Shown: one piece after another, positions 3,250 to 57,672 of the stretch
How the letters are laid out: each line of letters starts with the position of its first letter
Position numbering within the stretch: position 1 is the stretch's first letter
From: a virus
Lineage: Duplodnaviria > Caudoviricetes
Virus record (IMG/VR): IMGVR_UViG_3300037755_000591
Coordinates: 1 to 64,000 of that record
DNA: 64,000 nucleotides
Direction: 5' to 3' (one strand)
Program-made: the position numbers and the translations under genes
The notes under the pieces: model-generated
Database searches by the model: none
What the model saw: the letters and a program-made list of their open reading frames with translations, nothing else
What the model was told of the DNA's origin: nothing

Positions 3250-3269
3250 TATTTGCATCAATGCAAATA
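3250..3269 (+). promoter_or_regulatory. 20-bp palindromic site, copy 1
   Basis: TATTTGCAT-CA-ATGCAAATA, perfect 9-2-9; 1 nt after stop 3248 and directly before an RBS. Confidence 0.8.
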
Positions 3270-3287
3270 GGGAGATAAAAACCAACC

Positions 3288-3554
3288 ATGTACCACAAAA
3301 TCACAACCGACAATTTTATAAAAGCCGTTTCGTATCGTTGGCATCGTGGCCGGTGGCGCGTCAAAATCGCCTTTATTCAGGACGGCAAGAAACGGACTCG
3401 CATGTTCAAGTTAAGCCCCAAGCGCTTCACCGACCCCCACGACGCATGGCGAGAAGGAAAGGCTACACAAGTAACCTATAACGGCGGCGACTGGTACGAC
3501 GCAGACGACGGACTCGTTTTTATCCCGCCCACCGCGCAGAATTATCTGCATTAA
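3288..3554 (+). CDS. Hypothetical protein
   Basis: GGAGATAAAA RBS; 88 aa. Confidence 0.6.
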   Translation: MYHKITTDNFIKAVSYRWHRGRWRVKIAFIQDGKKRTRMFKLSPKRFTDPHDAWREGKATQVTYNGGDWYDADDGLVFIPPTAQNYLH

Positions 3555-3596
3555 TCAAATCTGCAATGAAATAGCCAAACGGAGATAAAAAACCTC

Positions 3597-6500
3597 ATGC
3601 CATACGAATACAAGCAAAAAGACGGCGAAACAATCACCAAGTATACAAACGTCGAAACCGCGAAATTCATTCGAAAACACCTCAAGGAAACCTACCCGAC
3701 AATTAAGTTTTCGGTTAAATGCGCCTCCTATAGTGGGGGCGCAACCCTCAAAATCCGATGGACAGACGGCCCCAGCTTGGAGCAAATGGAAGCCGTTCAA
3801 GAGCGTTTCCGTTCGGGGAGCCGCGTACATGATCCATATTCGGATTATGGCGGATATACCACCAGCTACACACACACCATCAAAGGCGAATTAGTGCAAT
3901 ATGAAACCTGTACCGTGAGCGGGGTTCCAGACTTACAACGCGATTACACACAGGAATTTATTGAACAATTCGCTGATACCTACGCACAAGATAACGGACT
4001 CCGCTATACAGGGAGCCGTTTTTCTGAGTGGAGCGGATTCACGCCCGAATTTGAATCATTGACAGGGCGAAACGCCTATGAAACCAACCAATTAACACAC
4101 AAATTCATTGATAACTTAGGCAAAATTAGCGCCTTGACTCCCAACGTCAAAAAATCCTTGGACTTGTCCACACCAGCAAATAGCGACGGCCCCACCATCG
4201 GCGAATACAAAAACAAGCCTATCTTGACATTACCAACAGACGGGAAACCGTTTAGTTTTGGCAAATCCAAAGCCCAAGCGATTTTAAACAATCAAGAATT
4301 AATCGAAACCTTTGTGAATGGTGGCGCTTCGACTCATATCAGCAAATATAAAGGGTTTGACGTGTTGACCCTACCCGATAGCAGCAATTTTAAGTTTGGC
4401 AAATCCAAGGCCAAAACTATTTTGCAATATTGGGACTCCATTGTCGCCTTTATCAACGGGGAAACCCTACCCGCCACCGCGGCCCCATCCACTGAGGAAC
4501 AACCAACCGAGTCAGCACCACCGGCCACGGACTCGAAACTTGCCGATAAATTACGCATCCTTGCCGACAAGATGGAATCCGCCATTGAAGCCAAGCTAAA
4601 CCCCGCCATCGGGGAACAACGCCGCACCGCCCGACGCGAACGAATCGCCGACTCCATGTACCAAGACGGTTTGACACTCAAAAAGACACAAGCCGCGCTT
4701 CGAATGCTGGCAGATCGACACGAACAAAACGACTGGACTCTATTCCTACGCAACAACGGACACGACTACCCGAATCTAGTTGGCTTATTGCAAGCCCTCA
4801 CCAGTCGGGCCGCCGTGCATGATGTCATTACCTCGCAAAAATACCCATCGGAACGCCTAGAAAAAATGGGAATCTCCCAAACCGCATTAGGACACGTCCG
4901 GGATGCTATCAATAAAATGATCGAGGGTAATATACCCGCACCTGAAACCAACAAAGAGCGGGAATTGAAGGTAGCACTTCGAAAAGCCTACGATACAAAA
5001 ATTGACGGCTTCTTTCCGACTCCATCATTTTTCGCTGAGTTTATGGTGGGTGAAGCCAAGATCAAATCTCACCACACCATTTTAGAGCCATCGGCAGGCG
5101 TTGGCCACATTGCCGACGCGATACAAGCAACCCACCCCACGAATGAACTAGATATTTGTGAGTTTTCGCCGATGTTAGCAAATATCCTGCAAATGAAAGG
5201 CTATGATGTAACCGAGCGCGATTTTTATAATCTGTCAAAACCATATGATAGAATTATCATGAATCCGCCATTTGAACAGCATCAGGACATCGACCACGTT
5301 AGACGTGCTTATGATTTGCTGAATCCGAATGGGCGACTCGTGGCCATCGTTAGCGCAGGAAGCATCGACCATAACGGCATGAGCCGACGCAAAAAAGTAC
5401 GCGACTGGATGGAATGGTTAGATAATCGCAATGCGGAAATAAATCGCATTACGAGCGACGACGGCAAGAGTCTATTTTTGCAATCCGAAAAACCGACATC
5501 GGTATTTACCTATTTAATCATCATCGACAAGCCCGACACGGAGACCAGTACAGCAATGAACCAAACAACACCAGACGAAACGCCAAGCAATGGCGAAAAA
5601 ACGTGGACACTTGTTTTTACTTCAACCAGCAAAACAACAGAAGGATGGACAGCACACCAACGATATACACACTATGAAACCATAACAGGGACTCAAAAAC
5701 GGGCGATTGAATGGGGAAAAAGTATTGCCAAAGAGCGCGGCTGGACTTACAACGCCATCGGCCCTGCTAATCCTCAACTATGCCGCACAGAATGGGAGAC
5801 TCAAGAGCGGCAGCGGTTGCTAGAGAATCCTACCACCCCCAACCGGCCCCGCTTTGCCATCGGGGATAAAGTTCAGTTTGACGGCTTTTGGAAGTATTAC
5901 AACGACAACGAAACCGCCAATGTTATCGACGTTCGCCTAGTCGGGGATCGTTTCGAATACTACCTTGAATACACATTCCGACAAAAAGCCGTCCGCAAAT
6001 TGCACCCCGCGCAAGACTTGAAACACTTTCAGCCAGCCGAAGCCGATACAGACGGCTATGGAAGCGAAGACTATCCCAAACGGTATAAAATCGAGGCCAT
6101 GTATATCGAATGGTCTGAGTCTAGCATCGCCAAAACCGCCGACACTCAAACCTTATTTACCGATGTAGACGAATTTAACAACCATCTACGCGCCATCGCT
6201 CACAGCCATGACTCCAACGGCGGCTACTACAAGACTCAAGTAGTCGTTTGCTTCGAAGATGGAAACAATTACGGATGGCGGATGGACTTGAATACTAAGT
6301 ATTATGCGAATCCCGACATCAAGAAGGAATTTCGCGATATATGGGAACGGAAAGCGGGACTCCATCTGGAACACGGGAAAACCTACCGCGAAACCTACCC
6401 GTATATCAACCACGCCAAACGACTAGAAGCCCTCGCTAACTTGGCCAAGTATGATCTTGGCCAAGTTGAACCCGAACCCGTGGCCGAAGACACCGCACCC

Positions 6501-6842
6501 CAACCGCCCAACGAATCAGCCGATAAACCAGAGATTCGCCTAGTCGGTTTTGACACGCAAACCCGCGCAGGACGGCTAGAAGCCGTGGCCGTTATCGAGG
6601 CAGAAAACCACAAAGGCGAATTAGTCACCAAACAATTACGCCTTGGCCAAAGCCTGTACGATGTTACCAAAAATCCCGCCCACACGGGCTATCACCTAGA
6701 CCGCGTGGAAGAGGGATTCGGCGACATCGAATTTTCAAATGGCGTTGTGATTGCAATCTCAAAAGACACGACTCCACCAGTCGATACAGATGAGCCACCA
6801 CCTGCTAAAAGGCCGGGCGTTATCCAATTATCGCTAATTTGA
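3597..6842 (+). CDS. Large polyvalent protein: LPD29-like N-terminus, duplicated small domain, N6-adenine DNA methyltransferase, SH3-like domain, LPD25-like domain
   Basis: FFPTP / ILEPSAGVG / IIMNPPF methyltransferase motifs; IRKHLKETYPTIKFSVK..YSGG..IRWTDGP (LPD29-like); IEWSES..GYYKTQVVVCFEDGNNY..RMDL (LPD25-like). Confidence 0.8.
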   Translation: MPYEYKQKDGETITKYTNVETAKFIRKHLKETYPTIKFSVKCASYSGGATLKIRWTDGPSLEQMEAVQERFRSGSRVHDPYSDYGGYTTSYTHTIKGELVQYETCTVSGVPDLQRDYTQEFIEQFADTYAQDNGLRYTGSRFSEWSGFTPEFESLTGRNAYETNQLTHKFIDNLGKISALTPNVKKSLDLSTPANSDGPTIGEYKNKPILTLPTDGKPFSFGKSKAQAILNNQELIETFVNGGASTHISKYKGFDVLTLPDSSNFKFGKSKAKTILQYWDSIVAFINGETLPATAAPSTEEQPTESAPPATDSKLADKLRILADKMESAIEAKLNPAIGEQRRTARRERIADSMYQDGLTLKKTQAALRMLADRHEQNDWTLFLRNNGHDYPNLVGLLQALTSRAAVHDVITSQKYPSERLEKMGISQTALGHVRDAINKMIEGNIPAPETNKERELKVALRKAYDTKIDGFFPTPSFFAEFMVGEAKIKSHHTILEPSAGVGHIADAIQATHPTNELDICEFSPMLANILQMKGYDVTERDFYNLSKPYDRIIMNPPFEQHQDIDHVRRAYDLLNPNGRLVAIVSAGSIDHNGMSRRKKVRDWMEWLDNRNAEINRITSDDGKSLFLQSEKPTSVFTYLIIIDKPDTETSTAMNQTTPDETPSNGEKTWTLVFTSTSKTTEGWTAHQRYTHYETITGTQKRAIEWGKSIAKERGWTYNAIGPANPQLCRTEWETQERQRLLENPTTPNRPRFAIGDKVQFDGFWKYYNDNETANVIDVRLVGDRFEYYLEYTFRQKAVRKLHPAQDLKHFQPAEADTDGYGSEDYPKRYKIEAMYIEWSESSIAKTADTQTLFTDVDEFNNHLRAIAHSHDSNGGYYKTQVVVCFEDGNNYGWRMDLNTKYYANPDIKKEFRDIWERKAGLHLEHGKTYRETYPYINHAKRLEALANLAKYDLGQVEPEPVAEDTAPQPPNESADKPEIRLVGFDTQTRAGRLEAVAVIEAENHKGELVTKQLRLGQSLYDVTKNPAHTGYHLDRVEEGFGDIEFSNGVVIAISKDTTPPVDTDEPPPAKRPGVIQLSLI

Positions 6843-6855
6843 ATTAATGCAAATA
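6836..6855 (+). promoter_or_regulatory. 20-bp palindromic site, copy 2
   Basis: AATTTGAAT-TA-ATGCAAATA overlapping TGA 6840-6842; followed by hairpin 6855-6879. Confidence 0.8.
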
Positions 6856-6904
6856 ACGGCTGGCATTGTGTCAGCCGTTCCTATCCATTAGGAGGTTTGA
6901 CCAT

Positions 6905-7397: not shown

Positions 7398-7424
7398 CTC
7401 ATTCCCTGAAAGGAACCCCAAACC

Positions 7425-8237: not shown

Positions 8238-8307
8238 TCAGAATTTTCAATTACCGGTAGTTAGCAATCTCGCTAGCTACCAATTAGCCACAACAGGAGA
8301 TAAAATC

Positions 8308-9375
8308 ATGGCTAAGAATATCAACAACATGTCCGAATTGACCAAAACTATCTTGTTCACGCTCTATTGTATGAGCCAAGAATTTTCCGATTTTGACCCG
8401 TTTGCGAAATATCGCAAAACCGACGACAAATTGTATTATGCAGATGTGCAAATCGTCGCTGCAAAAGTTTTTGGCGCAAAGTCCACCCGCGTCCACCGCA
8501 ATGCATTGGCGGATCGTGGTTTAATCGTCCGATATAACGGCGATAGAATCACCATCAACGACACGGGACGTACACAAGCCAAACAGTACAAGAACGTCCT
8601 TGTCCCGAAAATGGCGGACTGGATCACCAACCAAATTGTTGAGGTACAGACAACCACAACTCGTGAGTTCAATTTGTCCTTTCTGTCCAAGTTGTATCTA
8701 TACCTCACTACTGCCATGAGCATTGAAGACACAGATGTTTTTGCAGACTTTCGTTATGGCGACGGCTTCATTGGGCATACAGGTGTCGTGAAGATTGCCA
8801 AGTCGGTCTACAGCAAACTCGTAACGGGCATTCACCGAAATATCTTGATTGACCTAAAATTGATCGAGGTCGATGGCCACAATCACGGTGTTGTGAAACC
8901 AACCGACAAAGGCCTTGAATATGTCAAAAACGAACTGGTTTTAATCTTTGCTGAACCCTTGCGCGAGTATCGGGATCGACATACCAGTGACAACACCGCA
9001 CCAGAATACGCTGAAGGTGATTTTGTTCTGTTCTATTGTATGGATCACGATTGTGAACACATTGGACGCATAGACAATGTAGATAAGTTCACTGCCAGCT
9101 ATGGCTATGACATCACAGAAGTCTATTCAGGCAAAATCTATAGAATCTTCAGCGAATTTAACGACATCAAACGGCTAGCCAGCCTCGAAGAACTCAAGGA
9201 AGCTGCTACCTGTTCAATGTATCATGACATTCAGAAACGAATTAATGAACTTGAAAAAGTTGACACCGCACCATTAACGCGGGTCAAGACCTACTTCTAT
9301 AACAACCAACTGATGTTCGGCGACATCGCCGCCGACATGGAGTGGGTAATCCAGCAGTTGGAATCCCGCCTGTAA
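8308..9375 (+). CDS. Putative DNA-binding protein, two winged-HTH-like repeats plus SH3/KOW-like domain
   Basis: Repeated pattern HRNALADRGLI..ITINDTG / HRNILIDLKLI..VKPTDKG; YAEGDFVLF..IGRIDNV. Confidence 0.55.
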   Translation: MAKNINNMSELTKTILFTLYCMSQEFSDFDPFAKYRKTDDKLYYADVQIVAAKVFGAKSTRVHRNALADRGLIVRYNGDRITINDTGRTQAKQYKNVLVPKMADWITNQIVEVQTTTTREFNLSFLSKLYLYLTTAMSIEDTDVFADFRYGDGFIGHTGVVKIAKSVYSKLVTGIHRNILIDLKLIEVDGHNHGVVKPTDKGLEYVKNELVLIFAEPLREYRDRHTSDNTAPEYAEGDFVLFYCMDHDCEHIGRIDNVDKFTASYGYDITEVYSGKIYRIFSEFNDIKRLASLEELKEAATCSMYHDIQKRINELEKVDTAPLTRVKTYFYNNQLMFGDIAADMEWVIQQLESRL

Positions 9376-9393
9376 TTTGAATTAATGCAAATA
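9374..9393 (+). promoter_or_regulatory. 20-bp palindromic site, copy 3
   Basis: AATTTGAAT-TA-ATGCAAATA overlapping TAA 9373-9375; identical to copy 2. Confidence 0.8.
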
Positions 9394-9427
9394 ACCCCGC
9401 TGATCGAGGGCGGGGTTACCTTTCTTT
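9392..9427 (+). terminator. Rho-independent terminator
   Basis: TAACCCCGC / GCGGGGTTA 9-bp stem followed by CCTTTCTTT. Confidence 0.65.
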
Positions 9428-9475
9428 GAGGGCTGTTAAGCCATAACGCACACTTATTTTAACAAGGGGTTTAAA

Positions 9476-9730
9476 ATGCGCTACTTTTTTGTACGGATCG
9501 AATGCAATGACGTGATCGACATCAATGAACTGGTGGATGAGAGTGAAATGTTTCTGGTAGCCGAAAACCTGCATACCATTAACTTTTTAGGTCGCCAACC
9601 AGAACATACCCACTATTTTTCCATTCATACTGAGGACGACATTCAGATATTGGTGGATAGTGCGGATACGCTTCCGACAGATGCGATAATCGACCTTGCC
9701 GTTGAGACCGTGAGCGGATTTTTATCCTAA
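9476..9730 (+). CDS. Hypothetical acidic protein
   Basis: AGGGG RBS; 84 aa. Confidence 0.55.
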   Translation: MRYFFVRIECNDVIDINELVDESEMFLVAENLHTINFLGRQPEHTHYFSIHTEDDIQILVDSADTLPTDAIIDLAVETVSGFLS

Positions 9731-9739
9731 TACTTATTT

Positions 9740-9766
9740 GGCCGGATACACTTCCGGCCTTTATTT
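9740..9766 (+). terminator. Rho-independent terminator
   Basis: GGCCGGA-TACACT-TCCGGCC followed by TTTATTT. Confidence 0.65.
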
Positions 9767-9792
9767 AAGTCTAAAAATATCTTTGAAATTTC

Positions 9793-9830
9793 TTGCTACA
9801 ACCTAGCCGTTTTATGGTATAATGGCTAGG
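9793..9830 (+). promoter_or_regulatory. Sigma70-type promoter for the helicase gene with flanking inverted repeat
   Basis: TTGCTA-18-TATAAT with TGn extension; ACCTAGCC (9801-9808) / GGCTAGGT (9823-9830) bracket the -10. Confidence 0.6.
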
Positions 9831-9872
9831 TCTACCCCGTTCACATTTCAGTAGACAAATGGAGATACTACC

Positions 9873-12800
9873 ATGTCCGACAAAAGTCAAATGTCGTTGT
9901 TGGACTTGTTACAAGTTCAACCAACACCAGCCCAAACGGAAACTATCGTGATCGAAGACAACAAGCCGATTGAGGTTCCTGTTATCTATGATCTTGAAGA
10001 TTCCCCTGAAGATTCCCCTGAAGATTCCCCACCAGCGGGAAAACTCGAATTGCCTGAACTCAAGAGCAATATTATTGTGCGTCCCATCCCAACACCCGAC
10101 GCACACGACGACGAGGAACCGCCAACCCGACGTATCAAGGCGCTGGTGGTGAAGCCTAGCCCATTCGGGAAGCCTACCGTGTCCAAAGCCAAAGAGGAAA
10201 CAGAGACGGCAAAACCCCTCTATGACGGTGTTTTTGAACGGGGTTTGCAGACCCTCGCAGGATTATGCGACGGCGCAATTGCTGATGATGGCATTGGTTT
10301 CAATGCCGCCGACTCCTATACTGGTAAGTCCTATGCCGCCTTGTCCCTAGTCCGTCCCCTCACCAACGCGGAAATTCGTGGCGACGTAGCCAAATGGCTA
10401 GGTAAGTACAAAAACCAACTTGCCGATCATGGCATTATCTTGCCTGAAATCGAATTTGATGAGGCATTGGCAGAGGCAATTAAGCCTATCACCATCGACT
10501 TTGACGGCAAAAATGCTATAACAATTTTTGATTTTAGTTATGAGATCAAAGATAAGGTGAAGTCTATTCCTACCCGCATCTATGACCCTGACAAGAAACA
10601 ATGGGCAATCCCACCGCACGGTTGGGATAAGATGATGGAGATCATCGGGGATATATCGGTTCTGACTCAGGCTATGCAGGATGCACTCAAGAACCCACCA
10701 GCACCACCCCCAAGTATTGAAGAGTCGCGGCGCATATCGTTGGATAAAGACCTTGTGTGTGTTTCGTGGGCAGTATCAGACAAAAACCACGAAACATATC
10801 TGCTCATCGCACGGGATTTGAATGGCATGTTTCAAGGTCGAGCGTGGAATAATGAAGCCAAACAATGGCAGTTCCCTATCGCGTTGATGGATACCGTGTT
10901 GAAACTGTATGCACCGCACCCCTTTGTTGTGGATCAAAGTATTCACAACGCCAAAGAACAGGCGGAAAAAGCCCGTGTCGAGGCGGAACAAGAAAAAGCC
11001 CGCATCGAGGCTGAACGCACAAAGCTACTAGCCGATGTGCGGGTTCAAATGAACAACATCCTTGCCGCCCCCCCTATTCCGAATGACTGGAAACTATTCG
11101 AGCATCAAATCGAAGGCGTGAAGTATCTTGTCGAGAATATGAAAACTATTCTTGGATTCGACATGGGTTTAGGGAAGGCACAGCCTTTATCTGCGAAAAT
11201 CCTTACGCCTGAAGGCTGGAAAACAATGGGGGACATGAGCACAGGACAAGCAATCATTAACTCACAGGGTAGCACGTCGTATGTAACAGGTGTTTTCCCG
11301 CAGGGCGAAAAGGAAATTTATCGTGTCATATTTTCGGACGGCTCTAGCACGGAATGTTGCAACGAACATCTATGGGCAGTTAATAGCGCTAATCGCAGGC
11401 GGCGGGGAAACCCTAATCTCATACGTTCATTGAAGGAAATCACAGAAAGCGGACTGACGGAATCCAATAACAACAAACGTCACTTCATTCCAATCATTAA
11501 GCCCGTTCAGTATGGCAAGAAACCATTGCCGATACCACCCTACTTACTTGGCGTTATCTTGGGCGATGGATGCACCAGTCAGGGCAGCGTTTTTATCAGC
11601 AATCCAGAAGAAAGTATCTTGGAGGAATGTCATCGGCTTTTGCCTGATAATCTCTCTATGAAATATGCAGGGGGAGTGGATTGGCGTATCACATCAGGCA
11701 GGAATCAAGTTAATCATAATTCGCTAATTACAGACCTTAGAACGTTAGGCTTGTATGGTAAATTATCACATGAGAAATTTGTCCCCGAAATCTACATGCG
11801 GGGTTCCATTGAGCAGCGCATAGCACTACTCAATGGGTTAATGGATAGCGACGGCACAAGTGTTAAAAATCGACGGCATCCAACAAAACCTTCTTCTTGT
11901 GTGCAATTCACCAGCACATCTGTACAATTAGCAAATCAAGTCCGCGAGTTGATTGAATCACTTGGCGGAATCGCTACCATGTCAGATAAAATACCAACAT
12001 ACACCTACGACGGTATGAAATTACAAGGCAAGCGGGCCTATACTTTGAATATCGTCATGCCCGTCGATGTTTTACCATTCCGATTCTCGTCTAAACGCCA
12101 TCGTTTTACGCCTCGCATGAAGTACAAGGCGACGAGAGGTATTAAATCAATAGAATACATCGGCAAAAAGCCTGCACAATGTATCAGTGTCGATGCACCT
12201 GATAATCTCTATGTCACTGACCATCACATCATTACACACAACACCGCAATCGCATCATTGGCAGCGCTGGCATACCAACGCGCCAAAAAAGCGCGAGTGT
12301 TTATCGTATCACCTGCCAATGTAAAACACATTTGGGAGCGGTGGTCGAAGCAGTTTGGGGTTCGCGCTGAAATCTTCAGTTGGGCCAAAATGCCCGTACT
12401 CACCATTAAGTACAAGGGGGAGTGGCAGGAAATAACGGATATTAATCCGCGTTCATGGAAAGCTGCTCTCAAAGCTGAAGAGTGGAAACTTGTCCTCGAC
12501 AAGAAAGTTTATGTTTCCAGCAAGGACACACAGCCCTATATTGTTATCGCTGATGAAAGCCACTACGCCCAAAACAGCAAGTCTAAGCGTTCAAGGAAAA
12601 TGGTAGGCTTGTGCAAGAAGGCCATCGGGGCATTTCTGTTATCGGGAACACCCATCCCCAATGGGCGGCCTATTAACCTTGAAGCTCAACTTGAAGCGAT
12701 TGATAGTCCTTTAGTGGAAAATAAAGGTCTCTACCGCAAGCAGTATTGCAATAACGAAAATACACAGAATAGCCGATGGCACGTCAATACCGCCGCCGAA

Positions 12801-13577
12801 AACCTGCTCGAATTGTATTCGCAACTTCAGGCCACGGGAAGCATGTTGCGGCGCACTAAAGAACAGTGCTTGGACTTGCCCGAAAAGATGCGAATTTTCG
12901 AAGGTGTCAATGTGTCCAAGTTTTATCGGGACTTGTATGAACAAAAGTTCCGTGAATTACAGAAGGTCTATGCCGAACGCAAGGAACGGGGTGAAGTTAC
13001 CACCGACAACGCAGACATCATTGTTGCCATGAATAACCTACGAATGGCAGCGAGTCTAGGCAAGGTAGAACGTGCTACCGAAATCGCGCTCAGTGAACTT
13101 GAGGCAGGTAGGCCCGTCCTGATCTTCACCCAATTCCTCGAAACCATCGGGCAATTGCGGACGGCTATCGAGAAGGCAGGCTTTGAGGTTGACGTGATCG
13201 AGGGTAGCACCAGCAGTAAAGACCGTGCCGCCATCGAATTGAAGTATCAGACAGGCGACCCCAAGCCACGATGTTTTATCGGGACAAAAGCGGCAGCCGA
13301 AGGCTTGACACTAACCGATGCTCAAGTGGTGATTTTAGTTGACCGCCACTGGACTCCCGGAAGTGCGCTACAGATGGAAGCCCGTGCAGACCGCACCGGC
13401 CAAAAGAATGCGGTAACAGTGTTCTGGTTACAATTCGGAATCGACGCGAAGGTAGACCCCGTGTTGATCCAAAAACAGGAGAATAGTAACCTGATTATGT
13501 CAGGTATGGCCCACACCATCGAGCATGAACGAGAAGGAAATATCTTGACCACTGCACTCGAATCCCTGTTCTTGTAA
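9873..13577 (+). CDS. SNF2-family (HARP/SMARCAL1-like) helicase, intein-containing
   Basis: DMGLGK|T Walker A, VIADESH, LLSGTP, LRRTKEQ, AAEGLTL, QMEARADRTGQ; two HARP-like segments (RIYDPDKKQWAIP, RAWNNEAKQWQFP). Confidence 0.9.
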   Translation: MSDKSQMSLLDLLQVQPTPAQTETIVIEDNKPIEVPVIYDLEDSPEDSPEDSPPAGKLELPELKSNIIVRPIPTPDAHDDEEPPTRRIKALVVKPSPFGKPTVSKAKEETETAKPLYDGVFERGLQTLAGLCDGAIADDGIGFNAADSYTGKSYAALSLVRPLTNAEIRGDVAKWLGKYKNQLADHGIILPEIEFDEALAEAIKPITIDFDGKNAITIFDFSYEIKDKVKSIPTRIYDPDKKQWAIPPHGWDKMMEIIGDISVLTQAMQDALKNPPAPPPSIEESRRISLDKDLVCVSWAVSDKNHETYLLIARDLNGMFQGRAWNNEAKQWQFPIALMDTVLKLYAPHPFVVDQSIHNAKEQAEKARVEAEQEKARIEAERTKLLADVRVQMNNILAAPPIPNDWKLFEHQIEGVKYLVENMKTILGFDMGLGKAQPLSAKILTPEGWKTMGDMSTGQAIINSQGSTSYVTGVFPQGEKEIYRVIFSDGSSTECCNEHLWAVNSANRRRRGNPNLIRSLKEITESGLTESNNNKRHFIPIIKPVQYGKKPLPIPPYLLGVILGDGCTSQGSVFISNPEESILEECHRLLPDNLSMKYAGGVDWRITSGRNQVNHNSLITDLRTLGLYGKLSHEKFVPEIYMRGSIEQRIALLNGLMDSDGTSVKNRRHPTKPSSCVQFTSTSVQLANQVRELIESLGGIATMSDKIPTYTYDGMKLQGKRAYTLNIVMPVDVLPFRFSSKRHRFTPRMKYKATRGIKSIEYIGKKPAQCISVDAPDNLYVTDHHIITHNTAIASLAALAYQRAKKARVFIVSPANVKHIWERWSKQFGVRAEIFSWAKMPVLTIKYKGEWQEITDINPRSWKAALKAEEWKLVLDKKVYVSSKDTQPYIVIADESHYAQNSKSKRSRKMVGLCKKAIGAFLLSGTPIPNGRPINLEAQLEAIDSPLVENKGLYRKQYCNNENTQNSRWHVNTAAENLLELYSQLQATGSMLRRTKEQCLDLPEKMRIFEGVNVSKFYRDLYEQKFRELQKVYAERKERGEVTTDNADIIVAMNNLRMAASLGKVERATEIALSELEAGRPVLIFTQFLETIGQLRTAIEKAGFEVDVIEGSTSSKDRAAIELKYQTGDPKPRCFIGTKAAAEGLTLTDAQVVILVDRHWTPGSALQMEARADRTGQKNAVTVFWLQFGIDAKVDPVLIQKQENSNLIMSGMAHTIEHEREGNILTTALESLFL
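9996..10031 (+). repeat. 12-bp in-frame tandem repeat (EDSP x3)
   Basis: GAAGATTCCCCT x2 plus GAAGATTCCCCA. Confidence 0.95.
11178..12242 (+). mobile_element. Class-3 intein (355 aa) with LAGLIDADG homing endonuclease
   Basis: Starts AQPLSAKILTP right after GLGK and ends IITHN before Thr; W (EHLW), C (QCISV) and T (THN) triplet; LLGVILGDG and LLNGLMDSDG endonuclease motifs. Confidence 0.9.
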
Positions 13578-13581
13578 ATCT

Positions 13582-13608: not shown

Positions 13609-13634
13609 GCGTTTATCACTATGGAGAAAAAGTA

Positions 13635-14778: not shown

Positions 14779-15321
14779 ATGAAGAACAACCAAGACCAAT
14801 TTCAATCAGTACTTCCTAATCAGCAACCCATCACCATTCGCCATTTTACAGGTGTCAATATGGTGACACTCGAAATTCCATCCGCAGACGGCACAAATAT
14901 CGGGCGCATTGATTTTTCAGTAAAAAATTTTGCTGACTTTCTCGCCTTCTGCCAGCAATTTTTTGTGGCGCAAGTCGATTATGCTCCGTATCAAGAATGG
15001 CTACTTGGTAAAGATATTGTGTATCAAAAAGACAATGTTCATTGGCGTGCCTTGCCCCCCTTCCCCAATGAACCGCATCCAAATGATCGAGACCCCTTCG
15101 AGGAATACTGGTTCGGCATCGGTAAAGCCGTTGGGTGGGGAATTAATTTTGTAGAAGGGAATGATGATGAGCAAGAAGGTCGATGGCACAGTATATGGGT
15201 AGATTATTTCAAGGAAATGCCTACCACGCGCCTTCAGAAGCCTATTCGCCAAGTATACAATGAGGCATATCAAACGTTCTTGCAAGGCGTTGAGGCCGGT
15301 GATCGGTCACGGTCAACCTGA
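14779..15321 (+). CDS. Hypothetical protein
   Basis: GAGG RBS; 180 aa. Confidence 0.6.
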   Translation: MKNNQDQFQSVLPNQQPITIRHFTGVNMVTLEIPSADGTNIGRIDFSVKNFADFLAFCQQFFVAQVDYAPYQEWLLGKDIVYQKDNVHWRALPPFPNEPHPNDRDPFEEYWFGIGKAVGWGINFVEGNDDEQEGRWHSIWVDYFKEMPTTRLQKPIRQVYNEAYQTFLQGVEAGDRSRST

Positions 15322-15358: not shown

Positions 15359-15378
15359 TATTTGAACCTATGCAAATA
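15359..15378 (+). promoter_or_regulatory. 20-bp palindromic site, copy 4
   Basis: TATTTGAAC-CT-ATGCAAATA, intergenic, 38 nt after stop 15321. Confidence 0.7.
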
Positions 15379-15419
15379 ACGAGTATCATTGCCTTAACAA
15401 TGAAATAGGAGATAAGAGC

Positions 15420-17916: not shown

Positions 17917-18387
17917 ATGTCTATGTCACCAGATGAATACACACAAAATTTTGCCGACCGATTCTATGTGGCGCGACGAGAGCGCCAAGAAGCCCATCAA
18001 GACTGGACTCCGCAGCTAGGAGAACCCGTCAATGTTTTGTCAAATTTCGAATCATTGCGGGATGATCGATTCGTATACTACGAAGGCTACGTCCTCAGTG
18101 ATGACGACGGCTTGTATAGTATTTATGATGTCATGGCCAAGAAGGTAACATATGCGTGGAAAAGAGAAGAACTCATTCCATCTTCCATGTTTGGCGGTAA
18201 CGCCAAGGACGGGCATGTTTTCATGAAGAATGCGGCAGGCACAACAGTATGTGCCATCACCGTTAAGGGGAAGCAATCAACCTTTATCACCGCCCAATTG
18301 GACGTGGAATTATTTCCCGTCCTCGAACACCTCGTATGGTTCATGTACGTGGTATTTTGGGGGAAGGTGTTCTATGCCGAGAGCTAA
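17917..18387 (+). CDS. Hypothetical protein
   Basis: AGGAG RBS; 156 aa. Confidence 0.55.
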   Translation: MSMSPDEYTQNFADRFYVARRERQEAHQDWTPQLGEPVNVLSNFESLRDDRFVYYEGYVLSDDDGLYSIYDVMAKKVTYAWKREELIPSSMFGGNAKDGHVFMKNAAGTTVCAITVKGKQSTFITAQLDVELFPVLEHLVWFMYVVFWGKVFYAES

Positions 18388-18691
18388 GAAAATCCACGAT
18401 GAAGATATTCCCCACATCGTTCGTTTGTTTCAGCGAGGCTATAGCCAAAAAGCAGTGGCCAAACAATATGATATTTCATCATCAGGACTATCGTCGGCAC
18501 TATGTCGGCGCGGTATCTATGTGAAGAACATTCAAGCCGTTGATGATTATATAGCCGATCATCCAGCACTCGTGACATTGCCGCCACCGAAGCCGCGACG
18601 AGTGCTGATAGAGGTTATCCCGCACAAAAATGGAGTAAGATATGGACGAACGAATAAGACGGCGTTTGCTCAACATCAAAAAACACGTTGA
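18374..18691 (+). CDS. Helix-turn-helix protein
   Basis: IVRLFQRGYSQKAVAKQYDISSSGLSSAL HTH pattern; start moved to ATG 18374 behind GGGAAGG. Confidence 0.65.
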   Translation: MPRAKKIHDEDIPHIVRLFQRGYSQKAVAKQYDISSSGLSSALCRRGIYVKNIQAVDDYIADHPALVTLPPPKPRRVLIEVIPHKNGVRYGRTNKTAFAQHQKTR

Positions 18692-19181: not shown

Positions 19182-19269
19182 TTACTATACGAAAAGCGTC
19201 ACCTTTGCTTGACCCCTGAGCATAAACCCATGTAAACTATCCTAAACGCGATGAATAGGAGGGTTAACT

Positions 19270-23780: not shown

Positions 23781-24015
23781 CTTCGTTTAGTTTGTCCTCA
23801 ATTGCCATTCTTTGTGCAGCCAGATGGATAGGACTAATCACTCGCATCGTGTCCTTCGGAAGGGGAGACCCTAACACATCGGCTATTCCTACCCAAAACA
23901 TATAATGCTCCAAGCACTTCCTCGTGATGCCGTCAGTCTCAGTCCACACAAACTCGATGCTTGCTATATCCTCGCATCCTTCAGTCTCGCATGGGTAATA
24001 TTCTGTGGGAATCAT
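23770..24015 (-). CDS. Small Zn-finger-like protein
   Basis: CETEGC..CLEH. Confidence 0.55.
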   Translation of the reverse strand: MIPTEYYPCETEGCEDIASIEFVWTETDGITRKCLEHYMFWVGIADVLGSPLPKDTMRVISPIHLAAQRMAIEDKLNEDGD

Positions 24016-24755
24016 TTGCTGCCTCTTTCTAGACCTAGCTCCAATTGATAGGTCGCCACTGGTAATCTGCGGCGTTTTGGTGCTTGATTAAACATAGTCA
24101 TGATATTCTCACAGGAGCGGCGAAACGCTTCAAGGTGAACAGCTTCTTTGCGATAATCACCGGCTTCTGCCAGACGCGGCCAGTGCTTGTTTTTTGCTGT
24201 CGGATGCTGCTCATACTGAAAAAAACGTCCGCCCCGTGCATGTTTATTCCATGCGTTGCCATCGCAACTTCGGACATCTAGCCCGCCGTAACCAGCGATT
24301 TTATATTGCTCCAATGGACTACCACCTAGCAAGTGCATTGGCCAGCCGACAAATTCTGCGAGTGGCACATCTGTACCACCGTACTTAGTCCAAACCGAGT
24401 AGGCTAACCGTACCCGCTTGCCGGCAATGATGCGCGGTAGGCGTTGAATGCCGTACCATACTTTCGGAATGATTAAAACTTCATCCACGTATGGCGCGAT
24501 GTCTTCAGCCCAACCTAGAATTTCTGGAAGTTGATCGTCTTGCATCCAGTCCAACACGGTCGCCATAGAAGGCTTGTGTTTCGCTACAGCCTCAACGTAG
24601 GACGTGCGGCGAGGTGCTTTGTATTCGTTGTCTGCAAAATATAAAGGTTCATGGTAGACGATAGCTGGCAACCGTGCGCCCGGCAAAAACCCATAGGAGA
24701 GCGCAATCTCCATATAGGTGTTATTGTTGCCAGCACAGTAGATTAAATCTATCAT
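24012..24755 (-). CDS. TGT/DpdA-like TIM-barrel protein (DUF6610-like)
   Basis: YVEAVAKHKPSMATVLDW, IIPK, MHLLGGSP and VRSCDGN resemble tRNA-guanine transglycosylase-fold motifs. Confidence 0.55.
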   Translation of the reverse strand: MIDLIYCAGNNNTYMEIALSYGFLPGARLPAIVYHEPLYFADNEYKAPRRTSYVEAVAKHKPSMATVLDWMQDDQLPEILGWAEDIAPYVDEVLIIPKVWYGIQRLPRIIAGKRVRLAYSVWTKYGGTDVPLAEFVGWPMHLLGGSPLEQYKIAGYGGLDVRSCDGNAWNKHARGGRFFQYEQHPTAKNKHWPRLAEAGDYRKEAVHLEAFRRSCENIMTMFNQAPKRRRLPVATYQLELGLERGSK

Positions 24756-25832: not shown

Positions 25833-25852
25833 TATTTGAACTAATTCAATTA
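25833..25852 (-). promoter_or_regulatory. 20-bp palindromic site, copy 5
   Basis: Minus strand TAATTGAAT-TA-GTTCAAATA, about 10 nt after stop 25863 and directly before an RBS. Confidence 0.8.
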
Positions 25853-25862: not shown

Positions 25863-26090
25863 CTAACGTTCCTGATCCCAATCCGGCGCTTCTAGTCTGC
25901 CAGTTGTGTCTTCATAGCGCATCACGGGACGGATCATAATAATATGTTGTGCAGCATGGATAGCAGATAAGAACTCAGTTTTGTCGCGATAGTGCTGCAC
26001 TGGAAGCTTTTGAAACTTATTCCATGCTTCTGAAATTAATTCCATTACCTCATGTTCTTCAGGGGTGAATATATCCTTTTTCTCGTTCAT
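25863..26090 (-). CDS. Hypothetical protein
   Basis: 75 aa; EVMELISEAWNKFQKLPVQH..EFLSAIHAAQ. Confidence 0.6.
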   Translation of the reverse strand: MNEKKDIFTPEEHEVMELISEAWNKFQKLPVQHYRDKTEFLSAIHAAQHIIMIRPVMRYEDTTGRLEAPDWDQER

Positions 26091-27017: not shown

Positions 27018-27065
27018 CTGACTTGCTCAACAATCTTCTGTTTTTCGAGAGGAAATGTTTTTATG

Positions 27066-28414
27066 TGACATACTCTCCCCGTTAAAAACGGGGAGCATCT
27101 GACGTTAGCGCCGAATGCTCTGTTGACCAGAGTCTTCTATCGACTGAGACAGTATGAGGCGATGCCCCGCCTCTAAAATGTTTAATGCTGCGTTGTGGTC
27201 ACGATCTAGCACAATGCCACAGTCAGTGCATTCAAAAACGCGGTCTTTTAATTCCAGTTTTTGTTTGCAACCGCAGGTTGAACACTTACCAGTGGTGCGT
27301 TCCCATCGGTCGATGAACAACACCTCTTTGCCACGCTTGAAGGCAACCCATTGCAAAATCTTGATGAACTGTGCAAAACCCAAATCGGATACCTTGCGCC
27401 CCCACAAGCGTTTCATACCTGCTAGACTCAAGTCCTCAAATACCAGCGTATCGTATTGGTCACACAAATCATGCGCCAATTGAAAGTGAAAGTTTAATCG
27501 TTTATCACTGATACGAATATGACGACGGGCAAGATGCCGTTTGCCTTGATACTGGTTCTCGGAGCATTTGCTTTTCTTGGAGACTTGCTTTTGTATTTGA
27601 CGCAAGCGCGGTAAGTCCTGCTTGAAAAACTCTGGCGCGTCTTCTTTGTGGCCTGTGTTGGTGGTGAGAAAGGTCTTTAATCCAAAATCAAAACCGCCGA
27701 TTTGACCTGTGCTGATTTTGTCTGGAACTGCCATTTTCTCAACAACTGAAAAGCAAAGCCACAAGTTACCTACTGCATCGCGCTTAATGGTGACAGTTTT
27801 TATATCACCTTGTAATGGACGATGATAGACAAATTTGTAGTTGGTTTTGCCAATGCTGATTTTACGATGTTGCTTGGTGGGTGTTTCATCATGCAATTTC
27901 CAACCTGCTTGTTTTAAAGTAAAGGAACTATATCGCTTGACCTTCTTGAAACGCGGCAATCCACCTTCTTTTGCAAAGAAGCGTTGATAGGCTTTTTCGT
28001 GACGCTCAATTATATCCTGTACGGCTTGAGAGCCTAACTTGCGCCAATACGCATACTTCTCGGTTTGCATTCGTAGTTTAGCGATATGTTTCTTCATTCG
28101 GTTTTCGGAGATGTGCTTGCCAAACAAATGATAGTAGCGTTTTTGCAAAGCGGTAACGTGATTCCAGACGATGCCAGCAATATTAATCTGGTCATGCAAA
28201 CGAAAATCTCGCCTTGAGCGATACAAACGATACTTGTAGGTTTTACGGACTTCGATTATGCTTGGCATAGCTTTAACCCCGTTACGGTTGAAGGGTCAGT
28301 GGGTGTTTCAGCACCGCGACTGACACTCCACATTTTAACACACTTGTTCCAGAAATACTAGCCATTACGCCTTATATCCCCCGTTTGAAAACGGGAGTTT
28401 TACGGCGTTTTTCG
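27066..28414 (-). mobile_element. IS200/IS605-family element, tnpB only (IS1341-like)
   Basis: Left end after TTAT: CGAAAAACGCCGTAAAACTCCCGTTTTCAAACGGGGGATATAAGGCG; right end CTCCCGTTTTTAACGGGGAGAGTATGTCA; no tnpA. Confidence 0.85.
27105..28268 (-). CDS. tnpB: RNA-guided endonuclease TnpB
   Basis: KTYKYRLY N-terminus; RuvC motifs GFDFGL / VFEDL / DRDHNAA intact; CSTC..CTDC Zn ribbon. Confidence 0.95.
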   Translation of the reverse strand: MPSIIEVRKTYKYRLYRSRRDFRLHDQINIAGIVWNHVTALQKRYYHLFGKHISENRMKKHIAKLRMQTEKYAYWRKLGSQAVQDIIERHEKAYQRFFAKEGGLPRFKKVKRYSSFTLKQAGWKLHDETPTKQHRKISIGKTNYKFVYHRPLQGDIKTVTIKRDAVGNLWLCFSVVEKMAVPDKISTGQIGGFDFGLKTFLTTNTGHKEDAPEFFKQDLPRLRQIQKQVSKKSKCSENQYQGKRHLARRHIRISDKRLNFHFQLAHDLCDQYDTLVFEDLSLAGMKRLWGRKVSDLGFAQFIKILQWVAFKRGKEVLFIDRWERTTGKCSTCGCKQKLELKDRVFECTDCGIVLDRDHNAALNILEAGHRLILSQSIEDSGQQSIRR

Positions 28415-28617
28415 ATAAGGTATTCTTCCTGATGCTCGATGATGGTGAAACGGGTTTCCCCGTTGCCGGAAAATCGAATAGCCATCAACCCAATGTGGGA
28501 ATTAGCATACCATTGGTATTCATGGCCGCTTAGCCGTCCTAAACTCAATAGAAGATTTCTTATGAAAAACATAGTGTCCACCAAAACGTTGTCAGCAAAA
28601 TTGTATCACACTACTAT

Positions 28618-35560: not shown

Positions 35561-35827
35561 TCAAGAGACTTCGGCTTCATAGACACGGATACAATCTTGC
35601 CAGCTTTCCTCAAAATAATCAGCTAACAAGAATACAGCATTGGGTATTCCAGACAACACAACGCCGCCCTCCTGAATATATTTTTCAATCGTCACACGAG
35701 ATACATGAGTATCAAGGTTGATACGATATAGGGTGGGTTTACCTGCCTTTTCCCATGCGTCTCGCAGGTTAACATGTACCTTGGTCGTTGTCTTTGTTCC
35801 GCTACGCAAATTAAAAACTCCTTTCAT
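35561..35827 (-). CDS. Cro/CI-type HTH regulator
   Basis: KPTLYRINLDTHVSRVTIEKY; first gene behind the divergent promoters. True start may be TTG 35809, since AAGGAG lies inside the ORF. Confidence 0.65.
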   Translation of the reverse strand: MKGVFNLRSGTKTTTKVHVNLRDAWEKAGKPTLYRINLDTHVSRVTIEKYIQEGGVVLSGIPNAVFLLADYFEESWQDCIRVYEAEVS

Positions 35828-35842
35828 TAAACAACAAATTAC

Positions 35843-35917
35843 ATAATATGCGACATTTGATATAGAGTCAAGGAAATAAGGTATTTAATTGACATGTCTA
35901 TTTAAATAGTGTATTTT
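35843..35917. promoter_or_regulatory. Back-to-back divergent sigma70 promoters
   Basis: Leftward TTGACT-17-TATTAT (35871-35843); rightward TTGACA-17-TATTTT (35889-35917); CTATTTAAATAG palindrome in the rightward spacer. Confidence 0.75.
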
Positions 35918-35956
35918 AATTATACCATTTTAAAAACTGAAAAGAGGTAAATAACA

Positions 35957-41037: not shown

Positions 41038-41057
41038 TATTTGAACTAATGCAATTA
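41038..41057 (-). promoter_or_regulatory. 20-bp palindromic site, copy 6
   Basis: Minus strand TAATTGCAT-TA-GTTCAAATA; begins with the TAA stop (41057-41055) and is followed by an RBS. Confidence 0.8.
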
Positions 41058-41420
41058 ACGATCTGGTAGTTTGGGAATATTGATAGCATTGTCCCATGCT
41101 ATCATCGTCAACTCTTGAGCCACCTTCATCCAGTGATTGGAGGTAGCCTGATACTTATCACGATCTGCACGGAGACGAGTAAAATTCTGCTTATACATGG
41201 TTAAGTCTGACCGTACTTTTTCTAGTTCAGTTTCAAACTTGCTTGCCCGATCTTCAGCACGAGTCAGAAAACCAGCCATAGATGAATCAACCTTGGCCCT
41301 TGCGACCCGTTCAGCAGCTTTCGCTCCCCAAAACTTAATCAGGAGCGTAATGCCCTGAACCAAAATTCCGCTGGTTAGAATATATACAATGATTGCGCTG
41401 AAATCAATTCCGAAACCCAT
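41055..41420 (-). CDS. TM + coiled-coil protein (lysis-cassette-like)
   Basis: N-terminal TM segment followed by a heptad-rich region. Confidence 0.55.
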   Translation of the reverse strand: MGFGIDFSAIIVYILTSGILVQGITLLIKFWGAKAAERVARAKVDSSMAGFLTRAEDRASKFETELEKVRSDLTMYKQNFTRLRADRDKYQATSNHWMKVAQELTMIAWDNAINIPKLPDR

Positions 41421-55808: not shown

Positions 55809-55809
55809 T

Positions 55810-56415
55810 CTATCCTCTAGTTGTTGGAGTTAAGGTATCGAAATCAACGAACGTCCACCCTTTCAGTTCGTCAATTTTGGCTATATCTTTTTTCAATTCT
55901 TCTGCAATAGCAGAAGACCAGAAGCGCGGCGGAATACCTCGTCTGATCCGTCCGGCTGCAATCGTTCGATAATCCCCTGTAAATCCAGCAAAAGGGGATG
56001 CATCCAAAATATCTTGCTCGGTGCGGTTTTGGACACGAACCGGGAAACGGGCTGTTTTCGGTTGGGTAATCGTTTTGGTCCCAAAATCAATCCAATACCA
56101 TAGCGGGTGCGGATTGCCATTTAAAACAACAAGGCTATTGACCTCAATCAATATGCCTTTATTCGGGATTATCCGTGCCTTAGTATTAAATTTGACCGTT
56201 GGCAAGTTATAAGCTTTGCCCCATTCCGAATCAGAACGCCGATTACTGCCCCGTCCCCCTGACCAATGCGCGAACGTGCGCTCATATTGTGTTGTCAGGT
56301 ATTTGTTGATTGTAGGAATGATATGTTGAGAAGTGATCCGCAAGGCTTCTATCAATAACTTATTCCTAATGGTTTTTACGAACGCAGGCGTGAACTCCTG
56401 TACTTTGACTGGCAT
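55810..56415 (-). CDS. HK97 gp10-like tail completion / neck protein
   Basis: WIDFGT..RRGIPPRFW; position in the tail module. Confidence 0.55.
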   Translation of the reverse strand: MPVKVQEFTPAFVKTIRNKLLIEALRITSQHIIPTINKYLTTQYERTFAHWSGGRGSNRRSDSEWGKAYNLPTVKFNTKARIIPNKGILIEVNSLVVLNGNPHPLWYWIDFGTKTITQPKTARFPVRVQNRTEQDILDASPFAGFTGDYRTIAAGRIRRGIPPRFWSSAIAEELKKDIAKIDELKGWTFVDFDTLTPTTRG

Positions 56416-56777
56416 TATCGTCGCCTTCCAAGCCAGTTCCGCTTCCGTGATGGCTTTGATGTTGTCGGCGGTTTATTGGCATCATTTTTTAATCGCTCTA
56501 ATGCACGATGATTTTCCGCTGCATATCGTTGGCAAACCTCCAACATGTTCCCGTACTCAAGTTGGACGATAATTGCCGCCTTGTCACGCAACGAATATCC
56601 ACCATCCTCCCATTCGTGACGATCAATATTGGGGTTGTTCTTTAAAACCGAAAGCTCCCAATACTTGTTGGGAGCCGCGTCGATTACTGTTGGTCCAAGG
56701 ACCTTATATTTGAGTTTTTCATTTTCCTCAAATATTTGGGTCAATCTCTTGTACCACACCCGGAGTTTCATCGTGCC
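56415..56777 (-). CDS. Tail assembly chaperone, downstream (T) frame
   Basis: Overlaps the upstream chaperone ORF; reachable by a -2/+1 shift at G9 or from ATG 56771. Confidence 0.5.
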   Translation of the reverse strand, partial: GTMKLRVWYKRLTQIFEENEKLKYKVLGPTVIDAAPNKYWELSVLKNNPNIDRHEWEDGGYSLRDKAAIIVQLEYGNMLEVCQRYAAENHRALERLKNDANKPPTTSKPSRKRNWLGRRR

Positions 56778-57600
56778 CCCCCCCGGCACGACGACGGTTG
56801 GTTCGAGATTTGCCCGTTGAATTTCGAGCCAATTGGCGAGGCTTAGACCGAAACTTATCCCGCTGGTTTGATTTCGCATCGGCCAGTCGGGTCCATCCTT
56901 CTGCAAGGGTTGTTAGGTCGTCTGATAGGAATGGGTATTTTTCGAACAACACCTGCATCCATGCAATACGTTGTTCAACGATTTCATTGGGGTCTAACTC
57001 AGGGGCAGGGGGAAGGTGAATCTCAGAGCGTTGTTTGTTCTCACTATCGCGGTTCCAATATTCAACGGAGGGCATTTCGCAGCCAAGCTCATCAATAATC
57101 TTGGAGTATTCAAATATCGCGCCAGTTTCCTCGTCTTGAATGACGCTGTTTTCGAAAATATGCTTGTCAGTGACATCGCCCTCAACCACTAATCGGCCAG
57201 TGGACAACACAGCCGATAATGTGCCTAACAAGCTGCATATACGGCGTTCGCGCTCAATAGAGGTGCGAACTTTGCGTAAGGCGGTTTCGAGTGATTGACG
57301 CGGGGTAGCCTTTCCAGCACGCTCCGGCAGCCATGCAAGTTTATGATCGACACTGCCCGACGAACGCTGTGCGGCCAGCTCTCGTACTTCTGGACTGCGA
57401 ACACTCAGCGCTTTGGGATCAACGTCTACTTGCCGGGCTGAATAGAGGTCGATGGCAAAAAGTGACATCAGTTGGGCAGTTTCTTCATTGATGGTTATCT
57501 GGACTCCAATGTTATCATCCAGTTCAATGATACCCGTGAAGGTTTTAGAATCGTCGTCATATTCAGTTGTGATGTATTCTTTATCTGTTACGGTAGCCAT
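56728..57600 (-). CDS. Tail assembly chaperone (G)
   Basis: AGGAG RBS; lies between the tail tube gene and the tape measure; G9 run near the 3' end. Confidence 0.55.
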   Translation of the reverse strand: MATVTDKEYITTEYDDDSKTFTGIIELDDNIGVQITINEETAQLMSLFAIDLYSARQVDVDPKALSVRSPEVRELAAQRSSGSVDHKLAWLPERAGKATPRQSLETALRKVRTSIERERRICSLLGTLSAVLSTGRLVVEGDVTDKHIFENSVIQDEETGAIFEYSKIIDELGCEMPSVEYWNRDSENKQRSEIHLPPAPELDPNEIVEQRIAWMQVLFEKYPFLSDDLTTLAEGWTRLADAKSNQRDKFRSKPRQLARNSTGKSRTNRRRAGGGHDETPGVVQEIDPNI

Positions 57601-57652
57601 TTCGAGTATTTCTCCTGTTGAAACAGGGAGGGAAATTAACCCCTCCCCTTGT

Positions 57653-57672
57653 TATTTGAATTAATTCAATTA
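57653..57672 (-). promoter_or_regulatory. 20-bp palindromic site, copy 7
   Basis: Minus strand TAATTGAAT-TA-ATTCAAATA; begins with the TAA stop (57672-57670); followed by a GGGAGGG/CCCTCCC hairpin (57647-57626). Confidence 0.8.

Follow-up and report, generated by a model that had tools for sequence, protein, structure and literature searches.

The stretch analysed here (the window) is the first 64 kb of the 81,364-bp IMG/VR viral record IMGVR_UViG_3300037755_000591, which represents an uncultured, long-tailed phage, and it contains seven copies of the palindromic element WAWTTGMAY-NN-RTKCAAATA. The sites are real, restricted to gene junctions, conserved in sequence rather than in structure, and they are not host-type promoters. 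With a probability of about one half, we regard them as double-stranded DNA operators of one putative sequence-specific protein of two-fold symmetry, most likely encoded by the phage, that would modulate transcription across selected junctions.

Seven copies of a 22-bp dyad at gene junctions

Matches to the motif start at positions 3250, 6836, 9374 and 15359 on the plus strand and at 25833, 41038 and 57653 on the minus strand. All seven had been listed in a first-pass annotation of the window, and none is expected by chance (zero matches in 100 shuffles). Permitting two mismatches did not yield an additional locus. In a position weight matrix scan of the full record the seven copies scored 27–32 bits and the runner-up 14.9 bits, and no more copies were found in 64001–81364; the spread had been described as genome-wide, which is an overstatement since 57673–81364 is devoid of sites. 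The spacing is highly uneven (2.5 to ∼27 kb), with four copies within the first 15 kb. All copies lie at gene junctions in a genome that is ∼89% coding (P ∼2e-7). When IMG/VR and 185,579 species genomes were scanned for the motif, the only matches were isolated chance ones in AT-rich DNA.

Six copies have T and one has C directly before the motif, which mirrors the A/G following it. With these mirrored flanks the element becomes a dyad of 22 bp, whose right half is all that the 'CAAATA(A/G)' end represents. Each site is made up of two half-sites of 9–11 bp, (T)TATTTG(C/A)AT, and the TTG and CAA triplets are spaced by 11 bp and therefore face the same side of the helix. The sequence TKCAAATA occurs 13 times, nine times within the seven sites and four times in genes, in the opposite orientation; lone half-sites are neither enriched nor oriented, indicating that the dyad is the unit.

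Copy 1 (3250..3269, plus strand; TATTTGCATCAATGCAAATA) is the sole perfect palindrome of the set; it is found 1 nt past the stop of gene 2907-3248 and 18 nt ahead of the ATG at 3288, where the gene for an 88-aa basic protein with a weak AP2-like match begins (3288-3554, plus strand). Copy 2 (6836..6855, plus; AATTTGAATTAATGCAAATA) contains the TGA stop of 3597-6842 (plus), the gene of a methyltransferase polyvalent protein of 1081 aa. Copy 3 (9374..9393, plus) has the same sequence as copy 2, and its first two bases overlap the TAA stop of 8308-9375, whereas copy 4 (15359..15378, plus; TATTTGAACCTATGCAAATA) is situated 38 nt past the stop of 14779-15321. Copy 5 (25833..25852, minus; TAATTGAATTAGTTCAAATA on the coding strand) follows the stop of 25863-26090 at 10 nt, and is itself followed after 10 nt by the ATG at 25822, with a GAGG Shine-Dalgarno (SD) sequence in between. 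The first three bases of copy 6 (41038..41057, minus; TAATTGCATTAGTTCAAATA) form the TAA stop of the membrane-protein gene 41055-41420; the ATG at 41023 comes after 14 nt and opens the gene for an 86-aa membrane protein, the last of the leftward operon. Copy 7 (57653..57672, minus; TAATTGAATTAATTCAAATA) similarly supplies with its first three bases the TAA stop of the tail-tube-like gene 57670-59175 (501 aa).

The stop-codon relations given in the first-pass annotation were confirmed: four copies overlap a stop and the remaining three lie 1, 10 and 38 nt past one. Their interpretation as a pinning to stop codons was not upheld, because it is a by-product of the stops in the motif itself. On the coding strand the motif has TAA/TAG in one frame and TGA in a second (5/7 copies); with stops in two of the three frames, an open reading frame (ORF) that enters the motif usually ends there. 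The case for the orientation, described earlier as fixed, is weak. The five asymmetric copies do agree in polarity, but they represent only two variants, AATTTG (two copies, identical 21-mers) and TAATTG (three copies, in two of which the TAA doubles as the stop codon); moreover, copy 1 is symmetric and the flank is mirrored. The chance probability of this shared polarity is 0.06 for five independent copies and 0.5 for two lineages.

The conserved unit is probably a site on DNA rather than an RNA structure

RNA folding energies were 0 to −1.6 kcal/mol for six of the seven copies, with no fold at all for copy 6, and −5.8 kcal/mol for copy 1. The copies depart from the consensus eleven times, always on a single arm and never in a compensatory manner. 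At the variable M/K positions the two bases can pair in three copies, compared with 3.3 expected if the arms vary independently. One-sided arm changes together with negligible RNA folding are what two protein half-sites on DNA would give, not a hairpin. The data thus point to a dyad whose two half-sites drift independently of each other, as is usual for the sites of a dimeric DNA-binding protein.

The first-pass annotation had also considered an RNA processing or termination signal, and an RNA-level element could in principle act as an mRNA hairpin for processing, 3′-end protection or translational control of the next gene. The position between stop codon and SD sequence would suit such a role, as would the folding energy of copy 1, and TATTTG on the opposite strand could serve as a U-rich tail for three GC-rich hairpins that adjoin copies (see below). 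We nevertheless consider it very unlikely, given the poor folding of the other six copies and the ratio of 11 one-arm changes to no compensatory ones. In addition, a T/C asymmetry in the dyad of the distant relative G001 (see below) would give, depending on the sense transcript, either a G-U wobble or a C-A mismatch, and Rfam gave no match in the window. An intrinsic terminator or structured RNA was rejected, as no stable stem kept by compensatory change is present.

Hairpins, translation starts and gene context

Three copies are followed by a hairpin and three others by an SD sequence and ATG, as had been described. The hairpin after copy 2 (6856..6878, plus) is GC-rich (ACGGCTGGCA..TGTCAGCCGT) with a weak U-tract, and then come an SD sequence and the ATG at 6905. 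The one after copy 3 (9392..9418, plus) has 10 pairs, of which 6 are GC, followed by CCTTTCTTTG; it is the top-scoring intrinsic-terminator-like site in the first 20 kb, and its stem is able to borrow the TAA from copy 3. After copy 7, a GC-rich hairpin (57626..57647, minus; GGGGAGGGG..CCCTCCC) precedes the SD sequence and ATG at 57600 of a gene for 290 aa, with the chaperone and tape-measure genes coming next. The stabilities are about −16 to −18 kcal/mol, and every one of the three begins at +2. At 3250, 25833 and 41038 the SD sequence and ATG follow within 10–18 nt.

Small, mutually unrelated genes (84–108 aa) are found downstream of 5/7 sites. The left arm, with its methyltransferase and helicase genes, holds four copies. 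Of the other three, one is downstream of the genes for replication, partition and TnpB, one lies ahead of the final gene of the leftward operon, and one separates the tail-tube gene from those that lead up to the tape measure. Copies are absent from the 23.7 kb of head genes that come before the first site in the late operon, and from the main divergent control regions (69-882 and 35810-35956). Separately, a terminator-like hairpin (GGGGGATGCAAATCCCCC+TTTTAT) after the GH25 gene (genome 70742-70798, coding strand) holds a half-site, ATGCAAAT, in its loop, which may be coincidence.

Host-type promoters are absent from six of the seven sites

Overlap with host-type promoters was tested at the sites, and none was found at 6/7; copy 4 alone overlaps a plausible sigma-A promoter (TTGAAC-16-TATCAT, 15362-15389). 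Clear host-type promoters with extended −10 boxes do occur in the genome, for instance at 9731-9872, 19182-19269, 36629 and 77766-77913, and none of these coincides with the motif. No −10-like hexamer was seen at any fixed offset from the dyad, and on this ground an activator-dependent promoter of the Mu C, P2 Ogr or P1 Lpa type was dismissed. The ends of the record (1-330 and 81035-81364) repeat each other directly but imperfectly (315/330 identities, with no difference in the first 127 nt), so that the genome is probably complete (∼81.0 kb, assembled over a variable region, despite a CheckV completeness of 62%) and little is missing from it. Among its ∼105 proteins there was no match to an RNA polymerase or sigma factor. 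A T7-type promoter is thus disfavoured: the phage has no detectable RNA polymerase of its own, and the element is not an asymmetric one ending at the start site.

Related phages carry dyads of their own

Megablast and tblastn gave no relatives among 50,697 phage and 72,556 plasmid records, nor did scans of IMG/VR with patterns from single proteins, and the tail-tube protein is an orphan in a word-indexed set of 5.8 billion proteins. Homologues were reached by an exhaustive HMMER search with the portal protein. The closest, and only true, relative is a JGI contig whose portal is 50% identical and whose late region is syntenic; 30 kb of it were covered (the 77-kb contig belongs to sample ERZ27256991). 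The junction at copy 7 is orthologous to L261:20957-21036 in this relative, with both neighbours kept (44% identity for the tail-tube gene and 31%, E = 8e-34, for the next gene). A scan of the full genome and of related phages had been proposed earlier; it left the seven copies discrete and junctional, but the motif was not found in the 30 kb of the closest relative. At the orthologous junction a different 20-bp dyad is present, TATTnnAAGCACTTnnAATA / TATTTTAAGCACTTACAATA (AAGCACTT type), and a second copy, TATTGGAAGCACTTCTAATG, is found at another junction. The geometry and outer arms are those of our dyad; the inner half-site is different. The order is also swapped, with hairpin then dyad in the relative and dyad then hairpin in our phage, from which it follows that the two are separable modules and that the dyad need not go with the stop codon. 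As it has two copies only, the dyad of the closest relative is suggestive, not strong, evidence.

Two further genomes, G001 (IMGVR_UViG_3300035130_000101) and G002 (IMGVR_UViG_3300033121_000651), are complete and distant, and share mainly head genes with our phage; BLASTP across G0, G001 and G002 detected no shared regulator. Each has 12 copies of a private 18-bp dyad, TCTCAATTGCAATTGAGA with A/T-tract flanks in G001 and GTTACCGTTAACGGTAAC in G002, and reversed-pattern controls gave none. These dyads are mostly intergenic and often touch a stop codon, with an SD sequence and ATG following within 11–26 nt. One-arm changes outnumber compensatory ones by 15 to 2 and by 14 to 1, respectively. Near-perfect dyad families were present in 7/45 loci of portal relatives, 3/72 unrelated viral loci and 0/45 shuffled loci, a modest enrichment among the portal relatives. 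The sole non-structural protein in common with G002 is a DUF6610 protein (24012-24755, minus; E = 1e-30; 44% identity, 162 aa).

Proposed operators of a dimeric protein and the points against them

In a compact genome the space between a stop codon and the next ribosome-binding site is the sole room for a strict dyad of 20–22 bp, and this is where the sites lie. A bound dimer would modulate transcription already under way across the seven chosen junctions, either as a roadblock or as an attenuation switch, at three of them jointly with the abutting GC hairpin; it would not turn ordinary promoters on or off. Modulation of read-through by a dimer is favoured because three copies abut stable hairpins, among them, at copy 3, the best terminator-like site of the first 20 kb. 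We infer here both the binding protein and its effect on elongation.

The first-pass annotation had suggested a stoperator-like network, and the sites do behave as DNA sites of a sequence-specific protein, but genome-wide silencing is contradicted: the sites are dyad-symmetric and only seven in number, and their polarity is not significant. A role as a genome-wide silencer is unlikely, since copies are absent from the divergent control regions and from the head module.

As a tentative extension, less probable than operators as such, the dyad and its abutting GC hairpin may together form a protein-switchable transcription boundary, in which a phage dimer beside a leaky terminator, on either side of it, would set the passage of polymerase between gene sets. 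An example would be the junction at which polymerase leaves the abundant tail-tube gene and goes on to the genes of the chaperone and tape measure. Such a boundary would be a junction-selective cousin of the stoperator, reinvented with different sequences in related phages.

Several points weigh against operators of this kind. Searches of Pfam, PHROGs and the ESM Atlas gave no candidate for the binder above weak AP2 or marginal HTH_7 matches. The best leads are weak, being the AP2-like 88-aa protein after copy 1 (E = 0.08; Atlas score 0.80) and a marginal HTH_7 protein at 18230-18691; the latter is the only one of three helix-turn-helix proteins named in the first-pass annotation to give such a match. 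Six of the seven sites are away from promoters, which is unusual for a repressor operator, and the roadblock is a role that we only infer. The head genes have no site upstream of them, and the late operon can thus not be silenced as a whole. Furthermore, the three hairpins start exactly at +2, and a promoter with a 5′ stabilizing hairpin would look alike. Finally, the dyad family of the closest relative consists of two good copies only.

Alternative explanations

The layout with hairpins at +2 would correspond to a compact phage-specific promoter, with the start at the purine after CAAATA and a short leader that opens with an SD sequence or a 5′ stabilizing hairpin. The model for it is the layout at T7 phi10, where promoter, hairpin and SD sequence follow one another. 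A purine is present after the motif in all seven copies (GGGAGA after copy 1), which agrees with this possibility, as do the hairpins starting at +2 and gene 9476-9730, which is flanked by two terminators and has no clear promoter. In L261, L269 and G002:9577, moreover, the order is terminator, dyad, SD sequence and ATG, and the 11–26 nt to the ATG leave no room for a sigma-70 promoter. Such a promoter would, however, need a polymerase, and the apparently complete genome offers no phage RNA polymerase or sigma factor and no fixed-offset −10 box for that of the host. The dyad is complete and its flank mirrored, so that a pyrimidine on the other side matches the +1 purine; the perfectly symmetric copy 1 would fire both ways, half-sites are not used alone, and the 3′ arms of the relatives' dyads have nothing promoter-like in common. 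We therefore regard a compact promoter as doubtful. Slightly better placed, though still unlikely, are docking sites without a direct role in transcription, for genome organization, segregation of a plasmid prophage or control of replication, which would be confined to intergenic DNA because a strict dyad does not fit into coding sequence. An actin-like ParM is present and no integrase was detected, so that a plasmid lifestyle is possible; the location of the sites away from promoters also agrees with docking, and comparable dispersed dyads of other phages also lack an explanation (PMC4351075). The uneven spacing speaks against docking, as the first 15 kb hold four sites and the head module has none, and the tight association with hairpins and operon junctions, together with the conservation of the tail-tube junction in the relative, suggests a link to expression. 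A replication fork-trap, to which the ++++/--- layout would be suited, was rejected since the sites on either side of the replication genes belong to the same group and the polarity is not significant.

Sites for a global regulator of the host, of the Crp/Fnr or Rex type, would allow the phage to read host physiology. The core can be written as T(T/A)TG(A/C)-N6-(T/G)CAAA, the 5-6-5 geometry of Crp/Fnr sites; here and below the dyad cores are labelled with what we take to be the Crp/Fnr and Rex consensus sequences. A related 24-bp perfect palindrome at 189..212 (no strand assigned; TATTTGTGAATGCATTCACAAATA), in a divergent control region, has TTGTGAA-N4-TTCACAA, an exact Rex-type box, as its core. 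The −35 hexamer of a rightward promoter, TTCACA-18-TATAAC, is provided by the right arm of the palindrome, which places the dyad centre near −40. Its outer arms and core frame (TGAAT-NN-ATTCA) are as in the seven dyads, but the sequence is distinct; a variant in the terminal repeat (genome 81223-81246) carries a symmetric double change (TATATG...CATATA). As judged from its sequence, this palindrome may serve a host regulator, or else be the site that the protein of the seven dyads, or one related to it, binds with high affinity. The seven sites themselves lack the G of TGTGA that such regulators read, the exact motif has only single chance matches in the species genomes and IMG/VR, and the dyads of the relatives are quite different, which fits a private, co-evolving partner; a host regulator is accordingly highly improbable for them. 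The consensus sequences of sigma-54, LexA, CodY, ArgR, Fur and CcpA, compared by eye, were a misfit in spacing or key bases. Targets of recombination, mobile elements or endonucleases at cassette boundaries, of which the first-pass annotation had raised recombination, have the slimmest chance. Homodimeric LAGLIDADG enzymes read pseudo-palindromes of ∼20 bp, the phage has TnpB and a LAGLIDADG intein, and five of the sites are ahead of the small unrelated genes. On the other hand, similarity ends at 22 bp, the flanking genes are not paralogous, neither an integrase nor a Y1 transposase was found, both neighbours of the tail-tube junction are kept in the relative, and seven cleavable sites for its own nuclease would not be kept by the phage. 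Integron attC or cassette sites were discarded on the same observations (no integrase, unrelated flanking genes and an intact comparable junction).

Further elements of the genome

The phage encodes a tape-measure protein of 2,782 aa, a DnaB helicase, a GH25 lysin, an RNA ligase, SSB, the actin-like ParM, TnpB and two tRNAs. An SNF2-family helicase (9873-13577, plus) is split by a LAGLIDADG-type homing endonuclease/intein domain at residues ∼637–716. The TnpB-like gene (27105-28268, minus; OrfB_IS605 and a Cas12f1-like TNB domain) lies within the replication/partition block between long non-coding flanks (28269-28617, and 27018-27104 with a hairpin), and no Y1 transposase was detected alongside it. 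A 203-aa protein (genome 78781-79392, minus; L117:16781-17392) has a KOW motif (E = 1.5e-7) and a weak Spt5 KOW4 match, and may be a phage NusG-like elongation factor; an NGN domain was not detected in it. In the large-terminase region (genome 67534-69316) rough gene calls gave no single long ORF. A Walker-A-like AGGAGSGKSF is present in 68049-68713 and the L261 counterpart is one gene of 458 aa; an intron, an intein or a frameshift may interrupt the large-terminase gene.

Relation to known systems

The closest likeness is with a loose class of dispersed phage dyads, defined by a private palindrome far above chance of which relatives have different versions, as was found here. Cluster O mycobacteriophages have a 17-bp dyad, TGTTCGGNNNCCGAACA, present in 34 copies in Corndog and of unknown function (PMC4351075). 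As in our phage, it is a private palindrome scattered over a siphovirus genome, mostly between genes or at gene starts, its orientation is meaningless and its binder has not been identified. The copies number more than 30 rather than seven, 10/34 in Corndog are inside genes whereas all of ours are junctional, and the Corndog arms are invariant while ours are AT-rich, 9–11 bp long and degenerate.

SPbeta offers a precedent for repeated intergenic elements of a large long-tailed phage being the sites of one regulator: its SPBRE, 15 bp in ∼10 intergenic copies, is bound by the master repressor MrpR in ChAP-seq and electrophoretic mobility shift assays (PMC10516654). SPBRE is found in promoter regions, in contrast to 6/7 of our sites, and MrpR has a recombinase-like fold, of which no representative was detected here. 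The stoperators of Cluster A (L5 gp71 type) are 13-bp asymmetric sites read by a monomer, present at 20–30 or more per genome, strongly oriented and including a true operator at the early promoter (PMC9283540). They are repressor sites in short intergenic regions that act on elongating polymerase, the mechanism proposed here; our sites are seven dyads without significant polarity and without a copy at the control regions. A Cluster A-type stoperator was rejected for lack of an asymmetric ∼13-bp monomer site, of genome-wide sites and of an early-promoter operator. The T1-like phage TLS has 18 intergenic 21-nt repeats of unknown function, which the authors of that study also compared with stoperators (PMC11447400). 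TLS also resembles our phage in lacking a polymerase or sigma factor of its own, and it has few host-type promoters; its direct, asymmetric repeats precede start codons by ∼76 nt and are clearly co-oriented with transcription.

Host-promoter overlap at copy 4 only led us to reject a promoter-operator regulon, whether of the SPBRE/MrpR or the P1 C1 kind. In the P1 plasmid prophage a single repressor, C1, keeps silence through many dispersed asymmetric operators on ordinary promoters. The likeness is that of a silenced plasmid-borne phage, our phage having a ParM-type partition gene as well; the difference is in the promoter overlap, which was tested here and not found for 6/7 sites. Overall, judged by sequence features, the element does not have the defining properties of stoperators, promoter-operators, phage-polymerase promoters or RNA hairpins, and it fits the loose class of dispersed phage dyads.

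Private dispersed palindromes recur in phages (Cluster O, TLS, SPbeta), and for few of them is a binder or mechanism known. The present finding adds one more documented example and no new principle. The case is small and clean, with seven junctional sites of which six are not at promoters, and with one orthologous junction that has kept the geometry of the dyad while the half-site changed. If the partner protein were found, the case could reveal whether elements of this type affect elongating polymerase where genes meet, and it would provide a compact orthogonal protein-operator pair.

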